From the NCBI GenBank assembly GCA_965238175.1, contig CBDEGZ010000003.1, positions 1,536,001 to 1,600,000 of the forward strand: a stretch of DNA of 64,000 nucleotides. Reading direction: 5' to 3'. The stretch comes from Gammaproteobacteria bacterium (lineage in GTDB: Bacteria > Pseudomonadota > Gammaproteobacteria > CAJXQU01). Shown here in pieces: positions 38,728 through 42,225 of this stretch (within the stretch, counting starts at the first letter, position 1; every line of letters begins with the position of its first letter). Under the pieces are notes generated by a model. The model was not told the DNA's origin, made no database searches, and saw only the letters and a list, made by a program, of their open reading frames with translations. The position numbers and the translations under genes are program-made.

Positions 38728-39564
38728 ATGCACTACACTAATATCTTTTTCCGTTTCTTTTCAGCAAAAGTTTTGGTTTTATTCCTGATTACATGTGCAC
38801 AAGCCGAACCGAACCGCATCTCGTTAGAGATTGAACTCCCCAATAGAACTAGCGACCTTAGGGGTATTTTGCCCCACGGAACTGATGATTTTTCTATTAT
38901 TTCTGAAACGAAAACTATCAACATCGCCCCAGATGGGAAGGAATCACTTTTAACCGATCAAGGAGAAAGATATAAGCCTTGCGACACTCATAATATTACA
39001 GCTAATGACAATGGTGTTGTGAATATTACTCAAAGCAATGGAGAATCAATACTCTATAACTTAATGGACGTGCTTCCCAAAAATATTGAATATTATTCAG
39101 ACAGAGTAAGTATTTCATGCAACCTTCAATATCTATTTTATTATGATGATTACGGCGATGGTTTAATCGTCGTAGATATCGTGAACAATGATTTGCTAGG
39201 CAGTCCGCTGTGGTTGTCTGGACAAAACCTGTCTGTTGTTGATCCCACAGGAAGATACGCACTCCTAGTTTCTACATCTCTCAGTGAATATCTTTTGTGG
39301 GAGTTTCCCAATAAATTAGTGAGTAGAATTTCCGTTAAGCTTGAGTTAGATGTTCCTAGGTTTTCAGGGGATGGAAGTGTCTTTACGATTCGACGGTATA
39401 ACGATAATCAAGAAGGTAATATTGTTGAAGTATACTTGTCTTCTAGCGGTGTGTATTTAGAAAGCTTTGCTTTGAATTTTCACGCAATATCAAACAGCGG
39501 AAACTACTTGTTAGGTGTTGACGAGGATGAGAGCACCTTAAAGGTATATAGAATTACGCATTAA
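38728..39564 (+). CDS. Secreted hypothetical protein, beta-propeller-like
   Basis: Signal peptide ending AQA|E; DPTGRYALL, FSGDGSVF, ISNSGNYLL blade-like repeats; AGGAG RBS. Confidence 0.65.
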   Translation: MHYTNIFFRFFSAKVLVLFLITCAQAEPNRISLEIELPNRTSDLRGILPHGTDDFSIISETKTINIAPDGKESLLTDQGERYKPCDTHNITANDNGVVNITQSNGESILYNLMDVLPKNIEYYSDRVSISCNLQYLFYYDDYGDGLIVVDIVNNDLLGSPLWLSGQNLSVVDPTGRYALLVSTSLSEYLLWEFPNKLVSRISVKLELDVPRFSGDGSVFTIRRYNDNQEGNIVEVYLSSSGVYLESFALNFHAISNSGNYLLGVDEDESTLKVYRITH

Positions 39565-39779
39565 ATTTTTAGCTGCCTGCTGAGAGATAATGATAGATGC
39601 TGGACTTTGAGAGGCCAAAGGTTTTTATGAGATGACTGATCTTTTCTCTGTCAGCTCGGTACTGTTTCAGCTCCTTTGCTTCATTCGCTTACGCTTGCCT
39701 AGGTGGACGCAATTTTAGGATCGTTCTGAAGCAGATTTGAAAGCAAGAACATGGAAAGCTCATATATGGTCTCCTCCCG

Positions 39780-40008
39780 TATTGCAAGATAAAACATTCA
39801 GATAACAGGGACAGGATTGCTGTCATATATACGGCCTTCAATGAAGTTTTCAACTTCTGACCTGGATGTATTACGCGCCTATTTTCCTTATCAGGTTATC
39901 GGTATTAGTTACCCCTGAGCTCGACAGGTTTTCAATAGGCTGGTTTGACCTGTTATGCCATCTTTAGTTTTACCTTCGCAATTCGTTGAAATGATTTGTT
40001 CTCTCTAT
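39780..40008 (-). ncRNA. Predicted bridge/seek RNA of the IS1111-type element
   Basis: Contains AGCTCAGG and ATAACCTGA, matching both strands of the rejoined target, around a GGTA/TACC hairpin; also ATATATGA matching the circle junction. Exact RNA ends unknown. Confidence 0.75.
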
Positions 40009-41022
40009 TTAGGCCGGTGAGTAGTCATCACCAGAAACCGTTATAGCCCAGGCCATTCTTGCCATTTTGTTGGCATACGCCACACACGCTCGATTATGCC
40101 CCCGCGTCTCAACTAAACGATTAATCCATTGACTCAGTTTATCGCCTTTCGTTTTGGCTCTTGATACCACGGCCTTCGCGCCTAGAATTAACAAACAACG
40201 AAGGTATTTATTGCCGCGTTTACTGATCCCCAGTAGCACCTCTTTACCACCACTACTGTACTGTCGTGGAACAAGTCCTAATGAGGCGGACACATCGCGC
40301 CCTTTGTGATAATGAGCGCCGTTTCCCACTTCATTAAAATACGCGCTCGAGACCATCGGCCCAAACCCTGGAATAGTTTGTAAGCGTTGGCAAATCGCAT
40401 TGTTTTTTGCCGATTGAATGATCAATTGGTCAAATGTCGCAATACAGGCATCAAGTGATTGCCATTGTTCCTTTAGCTGGCGCAGTATCCTTTTGAAAGT
40501 AACGGACAACCGTTCGTTCTCATCACTTAATAGCAACGGGATAGATTGACGTAGGGTATTTAGGCCGGGACGAAGGCTAATGCCATATTCTGCAACAAGC
40601 GCTCTCATTTGGTTACATAATGCGGTTCTTTGTCTGACCGCTAAGTCTCTTGCTTTATGTTGTGCCTGGTTGTCTTGTTGCTCAACTGATTTAATGCCCA
40701 CACTTTTTAAATGAGGTTGTTTCGCAGCAACGGCGATGGCCAAGGCATCGTTATAATCATTCTTATTGCCGATTAGAAATGCGTTAACATGCTGAGGTGG
40801 TAGTAATTTCACCTGATGTCCCTGTTGTTGTATCGCTCGGGCCCAATACTGTGACGTTGCACAAGATTCTATTGCGACTAAACAAGGAGGTTGAGATTGA
40901 AAAAAGGAGAGTACCTGCGCTCGCTTTAACATTTTCTTTTTGATTATACGCCCTTGTTGATTACAGCAGACAGCATGAAATACGTTTTTTGCTATGTCTA
41001 ACCCGATTGTTGTAGTCTTCAT
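40009..41022 (-). CDS. IS110-family DEDD recombinase/transposase
   Basis: GLDIAK, AIES, KNDYNDA (DEDD), LGLVPRQYSSGG (catalytic Ser), GNKYLR; ATG 41022 follows a GAGGAG RBS; intact frame. Confidence 0.95.
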   Translation of the reverse strand: MKTTTIGLDIAKNVFHAVCCNQQGRIIKKKMLKRAQVLSFFQSQPPCLVAIESCATSQYWARAIQQQGHQVKLLPPQHVNAFLIGNKNDYNDALAIAVAAKQPHLKSVGIKSVEQQDNQAQHKARDLAVRQRTALCNQMRALVAEYGISLRPGLNTLRQSIPLLLSDENERLSVTFKRILRQLKEQWQSLDACIATFDQLIIQSAKNNAICQRLQTIPGFGPMVSSAYFNEVGNGAHYHKGRDVSASLGLVPRQYSSGGKEVLLGISKRGNKYLRCLLILGAKAVVSRAKTKGDKLSQWINRLVETRGHNRACVAYANKMARMAWAITVSGDDYSPA

Positions 41023-41165
41023 TTTGGTCTTCTCCTCTTTTGATTGTGTGTATGTCAGTTCAATCATGGCACCTAGATGCCGTTAGGGGGAGGAGACCAT
41101 CACATCAGGTTATGTTCGATCATAAGTCAGGGTAGTTTATAAACTTTTAGGTAATATATCGTGAT

Positions 41166-42225
41166 GTGTATACTAAAAGTAATTCTATGTGTTATTTCGT
41201 TTTATTATTTTTGATACTATTATCAACCTCAGGCTGTAGTTCGGAAAAGGTTCTGGAACAGCCTCAGGCCATAGTGTTTACAAAAACGGCAACTCTTGTT
41301 TCAGTGCAAGATGCACACGAGTTTACTGTTTCTGAAAATGATATAGCGCTCCGTGTCGAAGATAAAAATAATAGTGTCTATTTAATTCATAGTAATGGGT
41401 TTGTTACTCAGGCAGAGAGTCTGTCATATAGACGTTTACCCACCACCATACTGGTTCCAAAAGAAACGAGCTTTATTACAATAGATTGTACGCAAAAGGT
41501 TGATCAAAGTTATTATATAAATCCTGAAGTGAGTGAAGATTGTCAAATACATGCTACGGGCGGTGAAGAAATAACTTATGTAGGTGCCGGAGAATTATCT
41601 GAGTTATACTCACATAACTTCTGTTTTGAAGAAAAAAGATTTATCTGCGGGATTGATTCGTCTGTAGATATGTATGGCTTGCCGCGAACATTATTTGAAT
41701 TTAATGAAGTAGCTTTTTTTGCGCATTGGAATGATTTAAGCTTATCCTACGAAGGGTTCGATATTACGAATAAAATAGGTATTTTTCGCCAACCTTTTAT
41801 TGCCACAAAAAATACGCCCGCAGCTGTAATAACACATTATCAATATGTAGCTAAAAATAATTTAGAATATACAGACTTACAAGAAATCACAAAAATAAAT
41901 TCTGGATTATTAAATAAATGCAGACCAGAGACAGAGGTGAGAGTTAGTAGCTGGTGCAAATATTAGTGTAATAATTTATTATAATTGTTTAGAGAATGGA
42001 TCATTAAACTTATATGTCACCAATACGTTAAATGATAAATATATTATAAGTATAAAAACACCTAATACAAATATCGTAACTGAAAGTTATTCCATAGAAG
42101 ACAATATCTTAATATTTAATTCAAACCAAGGAAGTGTGCATGAGCATATTCCTTACGCGATAAAAATAAATTTAGCTAAGAAAACTCACCCCCTTACTAT
42201 TACGTATAGAATATCAACAGATTAA
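41166..42225 (+). pseudogene. Hypothetical lipoprotein, apparently frameshifted near 41940
   Basis: ORF 41166-41966 has lipobox TSGC; a +1 frame stays open from 41941 to 42225 (94 codons) and reads as a natural continuation. Confidence 0.55.

Follow-up and report, generated by a model that had tools for sequence, protein, structure and literature searches.

A repeated IS1111-type insertion sequence of a gammaproteobacterium and its predicted guide RNA

The element and its transposase

We analysed a 64,000-nucleotide stretch of DNA from a gammaproteobacterium (GenBank assembly GCA_965238175.1, contig CBDEGZ010000003.1, positions 1,536,001 to 1,600,000), hereafter called the window. On its minus strand, positions 39761-41107 correspond to an insertion sequence (IS) bordered by the dinucleotide TG at each junction. 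In the 5′ to 3′ direction, the element is made of an 83-nucleotide left end, a transposase open reading frame (tnp) and a 246-nucleotide non-coding right end (Table 1). We conclude, with a probability of about 0.9, that it is a complete member of the IS110 family, IS1111 subgroup, whose DEDD/Ser recombinase is guided by an RNA of about 160 nucleotides encoded in the region downstream of tnp. Two segments of this predicted RNA match the insertion sites found in the host genome and covary with the insertion sites of relatives.

The window flanks read CATAACC-TGA...TGA-GCTTTCC and the element ends are TGTGATGG... and ...CCATATA. A previous, sequence-only reading of the same DNA had delimited the element as 39760-41107 and had taken TGA as the shared core. 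This interval does include both copies of the shared TGA, and its position 39760 is in fact base +1 of the target. The TG part of the core was borne out. The A probably does not belong to it, as the two junctions of relatives have only TG (or CG) in common; the shared core is therefore most likely the dinucleotide TG. The base A following TG opens the left end and is also position +1 of the target. With one core included, the element proper spans 41107-39763, that is 1345 bp. When recomputed, all strings and coordinates of the sequence-only reading were found on the minus strand as it had given them.

Its assignment to the IS1111 type was confirmed by the Pfam domains, by the subterminal inverted repeats and by the long non-coding region downstream of tnp. 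The two repeats, ATGGTCTCCTCCC and GGGAGGAGACCAT, are 13 bp long, in the range of 7-17 bp that characterizes the subgroup, and lie 7 and 5 nucleotides inside the insertion boundaries. The longer non-coding region is on the right side of the gene (246 nucleotides as compared to 83 on the left side), as in other members of the subgroup.

The tnp product matches DEDD_Tnp_IS110 (PF01548, E = 3.2e-16) and Transposase_20 (PF02371, E = 6e-20). The protein thus possesses the N-terminal DEDD (RuvC-like) domain and the C-terminal PF02371 domain, with its motif, that define IS110 membership. The DEDD residues (D9, E52, D89 and D92) are all present in 54 of 55 relatives, with a gap in the remaining one. 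Residue 257 is a serine in 51 of these relatives and a threonine in four, and G258 is kept in all 55. The DEDD and Ser motifs can be considered intact, as had been proposed. The GL-P----S(t)G motif is formed by G249, L250, P252, S257 and G258. Moreover, the C-terminal domain aligns with those of the IS621 and ISCro4 transposases (PDB 8wt6, 9t56; E = 2e-4), with the Ser-Gly motifs in register. An in-frame upstream ATG at 41067 would extend the protein to 352 amino acids. Just upstream of this alternative ATG, the left end carries a hairpin, GGCA-UCUAGG-UGCC (41058-41071, minus strand), kept as GGCAUCUAUGUGCC in close relatives, which may be a structure of the 5′ untranslated region.

Table 1. 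Features of the element in the window
Feature	Position	Strand	Remarks
Whole insertion with both TG cores	39761..41107	-	24 full copies in the genome and one copy cut by a contig end
Left core TG	41106..41107	-	Only TG or CG is common to both junctions in relatives
Left-end tip ATGTG, DNA predicted to be read by the 5′ donor guide	41101..41105	-	Fourth base pairs with the guide column in 53/55 relatives
Left subterminal inverted repeat ATGGTCTCCTCCC	41088..41100	-	Conserved in relatives
Transposase gene, 337 amino acids, stop included	40009..41022	-	PF01548, PF02371; D9/E52/D89/D92; S257-G258
Predicted bridge/seek RNA, about 160 nucleotides, ends approximate	39801..39962	-	31 pairs in 7 helices; 97.9% of cells paired; 19 pairs compensatory
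Target-loop basal stem, 5′ strand GCCUAUUG, pairing with 39877-39884	39933..39940	-	Helix 2; 6/8 pairs changed on both sides
5′ target guide UCGAGCUCAGG	39914..39924	-	Equals the bottom strand of -2..+7; would pair with the top strand of core and right flank
Target-loop distal hairpin GGUA-ACUAA-UACC	39901..39913	-	Helix 4; 4/4 pairs compensatory
3′ target guide GAUAACCUG	39892..39900	-	Equals the top strand of left flank and core; would pair with the bottom strand
5′ donor guide UACAUCC	39864..39870	-	Complementary to left-end tip and second core base; first core base mismatched
Donor-loop distal hairpin GAAGUU-GAA-AACUUC	39843..39857	-	Helix 7; 5/5 pairs compensatory
3′ donor guide GUAUAUAUGA	39823..39832	-	Equals right-end tip ATATA, core TG and A; core match in 50/56 relatives
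TTGCAA, -35-like promoter half	39782..39787	-	TTGCA nearly invariant among relatives
Right subterminal inverted repeat GGGAGGAGACCAT, followed by ATA and TG	39766..39778	-	Read from the sequence
Right core TG	39761..39762	-	Read from the sequence; junction comparison

Copies and insertion sites in the genome

The whole 3.35-Mb assembly (three contigs) was searched for copies of the element. Twenty-two of the 24 full copies are identical. The other two (G000:C3:747417-748764 and 393960-395307) differ by one base each and keep the open reading frame; one carries an A to G change in the donor loop (window-equivalent 39837), the other a C to T change in the transposase gene (window-equivalent 40384). 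TG(A) is found at both junctions in all 24 sites. The left flanks are unique at every copy apart from TAACC, which precedes 23 of the 24 full copies, the remaining one having AAACC, and the right flanks mostly begin with AACTCGGGATAAG. The common target can thus be written TAACC-TG-AACTCGGGATAAG, or TAACC-TG-AACTCGG, where hyphens delimit the core. Insertion is therefore site- and orientation-specific, with a short shared core and no longer target duplication, as known for IS1111 elements.

Uninterrupted TAACCTGAACTCGGGATAAG sites also occur in the genome. They correspond to the terminal inverted repeats of a repeat of about 215 bp resembling a miniature inverted-repeat transposable element (MITE), present in about nine near-full copies (for instance G000:C3:2509894-2510108). 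Six or seven of the MITE copies carry the element in one terminal repeat. The outer tip of the MITE terminal inverted repeat is the preferred address of the element. The window copy itself is at an atypical, intergenic site, ATAACC-TG-AGCTTTCC. Hence, in the target proposed by the sequence-only reading, CATAACC-TGA-GCTTTCC, the left side is typical and the right flank, GCTTTCC, is unusual. The left-flank DNA of the window copy (41108-41700) was not found in 20 other genomes, six of them of the same genus. Because of this, the empty site of the window copy could not be read, and the evidence for the boundaries is provided by the 24 copies together with the empty sites at MITE ends.

Other sequences related to the element or to its target were observed. 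An insertion sequence of about 1231 bp is present in at least 60 near-identical copies (for instance G000:C3 946621-947850). One of its ends carries TTAAACTTAACCTGACAGTC, which equals the left half and core of the IS1111 target, and three copies of the IS1111 element sit a few bases outside its other end. At G000:C3:1393274-1393339 (L029/L030), a perfect 66-bp palindrome consists of two left-end tips (IS bases 1-40) arranged head to head, with TAACC on both flanks; it could represent a miniature derivative or have arisen by recombination. Two solo left ends were found at C3:1154716-1154798 (L027, 90% identity) and C3:2897431-2897503 (L028, 84% identity), as well as a decayed relative at C3:2357911-2358383 (L026, 79% identity) that retains the first ~390 bases and, further on, a short piece. 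TAACC or TAATC precedes each of the three.

Target guides and site choice

In the sequence-only reading, the non-coding end was proposed to contain two target-matching segments, AGCTCAGG (39921-39914) and ATAACCTGA (39899-39891), on both sides of the hairpin GGTA-ACTAA-TACC (39913-39901, minus strand). The first of these segments stands as a guide. Its extent was too short, however, the real span being (U)CGAGCUCAGG, which disagrees with 19 of the 24 sites at +2. Written as top-strand DNA, the 3′ target guide GAUAACCUG predicts ATAACC-TG and the reverse complement of the 5′ target guide UCGAGCUCAGG predicts CC-TG-AGCTCGA. The two guides therefore correspond to opposite target strands and overlap at the core, as described for bridge/seek RNAs.

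In order to evaluate these predictions, they were compared to the 24 sites. Positions -5 to +1 read TAACC-TG-A and agree with the guides in 23-24 of 24 sites. At positions +3, +4, +5 and +6, agreement was observed in 16, 22, 17 and 14 sites, respectively. Overall, the guide-predicted 16-mer was matched at 10-13 positions in 23 sites and at 8 positions in the remaining one. The sequence-only reading had suggested looking at the other genomic copies. The 23 other full copies occupy TAACC-TGA-A.T-like sites related to the guides, so that the RNA-guide reading is not refuted.

All TAACCTGA sites of the genome were then ranked according to the number of matches of positions +2 to +6 to the guide-predicted GCTCG, 195 unoccupied sites outside IS copies being counted. 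Occupancy was 1/107 with no match, 1/59 with one match, 5/23 with two, 7/16 with three, 9/12 with four and 0/1 with five. The difference between sites with at least three matches and sites with at most one is highly significant (Fisher's test, p = 8e-14, or p = 3e-11 when 60 repeated sites are collapsed to one). These 60 poorly matching sites are the TAACCTGACAGTC sequences located in one end of the abundant ~1231-bp IS. Only 1 of 61 TAACCTGACAGTC sites, which offer the left half and the core alone, is occupied. Since occupancy rises with right-half matches, the left half and core are not sufficient and the right-half guide matters. The guide, though mismatched with the main target at +2, still fills 9 of the 12 best sites, and the element thus provides a natural map of target specificity. 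The genome's best guide-matching site, C3:393936 (TTAACCTGAGCTCGGGG, one mismatch in 14), is found in inverted orientation, separated by 3 bp from the right end of an IS copy.

Covariation of guides and flanks among relatives

Relatives were collected by scanning one genome per species, and 80 loci showing 49-78% amino acid identity were kept. They come mostly from marine Gammaproteobacteria and Desulfuromonadales. The ends could be placed in 65 of the 80 loci, the other 15 having no end pair. Doubtful end pairs (L046, L047, L053, L079 and L082) were set aside and identical non-coding regions were collapsed, giving 56 relatives. For the guide/flank test, six more were dropped because of short flanks or gaps and identical guide pairs were collapsed, giving 48. 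L065, which has a deletion in the donor loop, was left out of the structural alignments (A1 and A2) and of the counts for the 5′ donor guide. The register between guides and flanks was fixed, shifts of ±1 being allowed for real and control pairs alike, and a single-site flank was used for each relative.

Alignment of the non-coding regions is good outside two hypervariable blocks, which are exactly the two target segments. Over the 48 guide pairs, a mean of 5.27 out of 6 right-flank positions agreed with the reverse-complemented 5′ guide, as compared to 2.72 for the mispaired control. For the left flank and the 3′ guide, the mean was 4.79 out of 6, as compared to 2.65. Neither mean was reached in any of 10,000 permutations. 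Guides thus covary with target sites among relatives, as expected for a bridge/seek RNA. The sequence-only reading had proposed aligning homologous IS ends as a check, and the alignment supports it on this point.

Individual relatives illustrate this variation. L031 has the guides UAACCUCAG and CGAUCUG, and its site is GATC-TG-AGGTTA. L035 and L036 have the guide UAUACCCAU and adjoin TG-GGTATA. These close relatives (68-78% amino acid identity) appear from their guides and flanks to have been naturally retargeted. Several relatives target GTAGGT-CG-GATAAG-like repeats, which resemble the ISPa11 target as it is listed in Table 1 of PMC13604230; we consider this resemblance as a lead only. Among 5426 E. 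coli genomes, the non-coding region was matched in one (70.7% identity), a match that named no studied IS. The best plasmid match (L119, NZ_CP043927.1 187220-191020) is located in a Klebsiella IncHI2 plasmid beside an IS110-family transposase. Its RNA-coding right end shows 70.7% identity over 192 bases, again with no studied IS named. Because the right end is shared with this Klebsiella element, conservation of the RNA scaffold extends well beyond marine bacteria.

Structure of the predicted RNA

A consensus structure was calculated with RNAalifold using 55 sequences. It comprises an outer stem and two loops. The target loop is surrounded by a basal stem, a CCU/AGG clamp of 3 bp and a distal hairpin; the donor loop has a closure of 2 bp, a helix of 4 bp and a distal hairpin of its own. 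In this structure, 97.9% of the cells were paired, as compared to 34-39% when partners were slid by one to three columns. Compensatory changes were observed for 19 pairs, and none of 500 shuffles reached any of five measures. All four guide segments are located in unpaired strands of the two internal loops. A conserved structure with guides in internal loops is expected for a bridge/seek RNA, and the fold agrees with the check that the sequence-only reading had put forward. The whole non-coding end folds better than all of 200 shuffles (z = -2.68).

Predicted donor guides

The matches of the donor loop to the element ends were already indicated in the sequence-only reading: ACATC at 39869-39865, a GAAGTT/AACTTC stem-loop at 39857-39843 and ATATATGA at 39830-39823 (minus strand). 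The 3′ donor segment AUAUAUGA (8 nucleotides) equals the right-end tip and core, and the 5′ donor match covers 5 nucleotides (ACAUC). The core carried by the 3′ donor guide is that of the right junction in 50 of 56 relatives. Position 4 of the left-end tip, which is either T or A, is Watson-Crick consistent with the guide column in 53 of 55 relatives; otherwise the ends vary little. The T state at this position is found in the window clade, in L074 and in L099. Hence, the donor guides are supported by their matches and by covariation at tip position 4 and at the core, with few variable positions, and their support is weaker than that of the target guides.

Thirteen of the 56 relatives (L056, L058, L059, L065, L077, L083, L086, L088, L090, L093, L094, L100 and L108) combine a TG left junction with CG in three places: the right junction, the 3′ target guide and the 3′ donor guide. 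None of the 56 relatives showed the opposite arrangement, and in three others the left junction reads TG and the right one TA. In 4 of the 13, the 5′ donor guide spells TG. It could be imagined that, in this clade, the donor guides read the two integrated junctions separately (left core with left end, right end with right core) and not only the circle junction. We consider this rather improbable. If true, one RNA would set both excision and insertion.

A model for RNA-guided insertion

The following model is derived by analogy with the mechanism published for the family, in particular for RNA production, binding by the protein, the chemistry of strand exchange and present-day activity. The RNA would be transcribed from the 246-nucleotide region downstream of tnp and would expose two internal loops. 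One of them would contact the target: UCGAGCUCAGG would bind the top strand of CC-TG-AGCTCGA and GAUAACCUG the bottom strand of ATAACC-TG, both pairings together setting where the element inserts and in which orientation. The other loop would recognise the joined element ends (...CCATATA-TG-ATGTG...) by means of UACAUC and AUAUAUGA. The strands would be recombined at the shared TG. Once the element is excised, a sigma-70-like promoter driving expression of the transposase and the RNA would arise at the circle junction.

The sequence of the ends is compatible with this last step. The promoter formed by TTGCAA, a 17-nucleotide spacer and TATGAT is complete only once the right and left ends have been joined. 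TATGAT is made of the last two right-end bases, the core and the left end of the joined circle, so that the predicted promoter exists only in the circle. Junction promoters are described for the family in the Discussion of PMC11187229. A promoter scan of the integrated copy gave three promoter-like sites, as compared to 3.0 expected, and none was located upstream of the RNA on the minus strand.

Evaluation of the model and of alternative explanations

Anatomy, copy number, site consensus, guide/flank covariation, covariation of the RNA structure and catalytic residues are direct observations. Several of the observations nevertheless weigh against a two-loop guide RNA in an active element. Concerning the target, the guide predicts G at +2, where A is found in 19 of 24 sites, and position -6 agrees with the guide in just 6 of 24. 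The sole site with five of five right-half matches (C3:393936) is unoccupied, and, as regards activity, several well-matched sites are empty. Since the relatives are phylogenetically related, the permutation p-values overstate independence. Concerning the donor, the evidence consists of one variable position and the core, and the first core base is mismatched in the 5′ donor guide of the window. The 11 T/A cases come from at least three lineages (the window clade, L074 and L099), so that independent donor events are few. Concerning the RNA, the 151-nucleotide core folds no better than shuffled sequences by energy (z = -0.63, 49 of 200 folding as well); the structural support therefore comes from covariation and not from folding energy. 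A scan of 39500-41400 with Rfam 15 gave no match at E <= 10, which weighs little as the coverage of IS1111 models is uncertain. Finally, no RNA run among the six coded runs contains the stretch, which was found in three DNA-type rows from one study.

It could be argued that the target guides are real and that the donor matches are conserved scaffold, the ends being recognised by the protein through the 13-bp subterminal repeats. Hardly any variation is seen in the element ends and in the donor-loop segments, which leaves little room for donor covariation, and this variation is limited to one tip position and the core. Moreover, the fifth tip base is compatible with the guide in 46 of 55 relatives if G-U pairs are counted and Watson-Crick in 21 only, the 5′ donor guide of the window matches just five contiguous bases (ACAUC), and an 82-nucleotide short seekRNA of ISEc11 carrying target matches sufficed for movement according to the data reported in PMC11187229. 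However, the Watson-Crick consistency of tip position 4 in 53 of 55 relatives, with the T/A state in at least three lineages, and the core agreement in 50 of 56 speak against this explanation. In addition, the donor segments are located in an internal loop having the same geometry as the target loop, and donor complementarity is among the features reported for IS1111 loops by Durrant et al. (PMC11208160). Overall, we regard scaffold-only donor matches as unlikely, and favor guides in both loops. Another explanation concerns activity. The element may be intact in sequence yet immobile, its identical copies reflecting a past burst or homogenisation by gene conversion. The empty well-matched sites would fit with this, as would the lack of an RNA run containing the stretch. 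In contrast, the identity of 22 of the 24 full copies, the single-base differences and open reading frames of the other two, the retention of all catalytic residues and the unique left flank of every copy argue against this, and we doubt that the element is immobile.

Alternatively, the protein alone might choose the site, the RNA/DNA matches being incidental; in a variant of this explanation, the target segments form an intramolecular stem. The sequence-only reading had itself cautioned that TCAGG and CCTGA, which are mutually complementary in the window RNA, could form a plain stem. A single-sequence fold also pairs part of the 5′ guide with a conserved upstream CCUG. This caveat is now largely answered. 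The overlap of the guides is 3-4 nucleotides, as expected if both read the core on opposite strands. It agrees at four of four positions in just 16 of 56 relatives, and position -2 agrees in 20 of 56, whereas the guide/DNA covariation reaches beyond the overlap, at +2 to +7 and -6 to -3. Furthermore, occupancy follows the guide match, and family members were reprogrammed in experiments described in PMC11187229. Site choice by the protein alone is already disfavoured and, in our opinion, highly improbable. With an RNA-guided recombinase as the preferred reading, we infer that the element is probably active and could be programmable, as the sequence-only reading had suggested.

Other features of the assembly

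The two small contigs, C1 and C2, have lengths of 10,967 and 8,481 bp and G+C contents of 55.8% and 43.9%, the chromosomal value being 40.4%; C1 could be foreign DNA or a contaminant. The genome yielded a single 16S match, which shows 86-90% identity to four marine Gammaproteobacteria. DotI/IcmL gave no match in a genome search run without a positive control.

Relation to known systems and significance

The element was compared by published features with the IS1111 seekRNA elements ISEc11, ISPa11, ISKpn4 and ISPst6 (Siddiquee et al. 2024, PMC11187229). As far as those features go, it shares with this group a transposase of about 340 amino acids that possesses both the DEDD residues and the motif GL-P----S(t)G, subterminal inverted repeats and a long non-coding region downstream of tnp, as well as close relatives that appear naturally retargeted and a predicted circle-junction promoter. 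The predicted RNA, of about 160 nucleotides, is within the 145-170-nucleotide range given there for the 'long' seekRNA form, and the target match complementary to the top strand comes first, as in the IS1111 seekRNAs described there. It differs from the ISEc11 group by its target, the MITE terminal-repeat tip TAACC-TG-AACTCGG, and in being known from sequence alone.

With the IS621/IS110 bridge RNA as reported by Durrant et al. 2024 (PMC11208160; structures 8wt6-8wt9), the common features are a predicted target-binding and a predicted donor-binding loop, each with two putative guides directed to opposite strands around a dinucleotide core. The catalytic Ser-Gly motif also aligns with that of IS621. 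In contrast, the RNA lies at the right end, downstream of tnp, whereas that of IS621 lies at the left end. Further differences are the long (13 bp) subterminal repeats, the core TG in place of the CT of IS621, and a sequence alignment confined to the C-terminal domain. The donor loop looks like a simple internal loop, whereas many IS1111 members are described with multi-loop donor sites in PMC11208160. The one-orientation insertion of an IS1111-family element into the terminal inverted repeats of another mobile element is also reminiscent of IS4321/IS5075. The target of the latter, attributed to work of Partridge and Hall in 2003, reportedly consists of the 38-bp repeats of Tn21-family transposons on plasmids, whereas the target here is a chromosomal MITE of about 215 bp.

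Overall, the element is a clear new example of a class known since 2024 and not a new kind of system. It is distinct from the studied members by its MITE-end target, its apparently simple donor loop and its unusually clean within-genome evidence. The clade may already be among the published predicted IS1111 bridge RNAs.

Compact tools for genome writing are under development from RNA-guided IS110/IS1111 recombinases, and the number of IS1111-type RNAs analysed in detail is small. In this context, the element offers a small RNA whose target and donor loops both appear to be simple internal loops. Its clade offers at least 48 natural guide variants with known flanks, that is a natural reprogramming series, and its genome offers a within-genome series in which occupancy falls as right-half matches are lost. 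For the host, 25 copies of a 1.3-kb repeat, with their nesting in other mobile elements, drive rearrangement of the genome.

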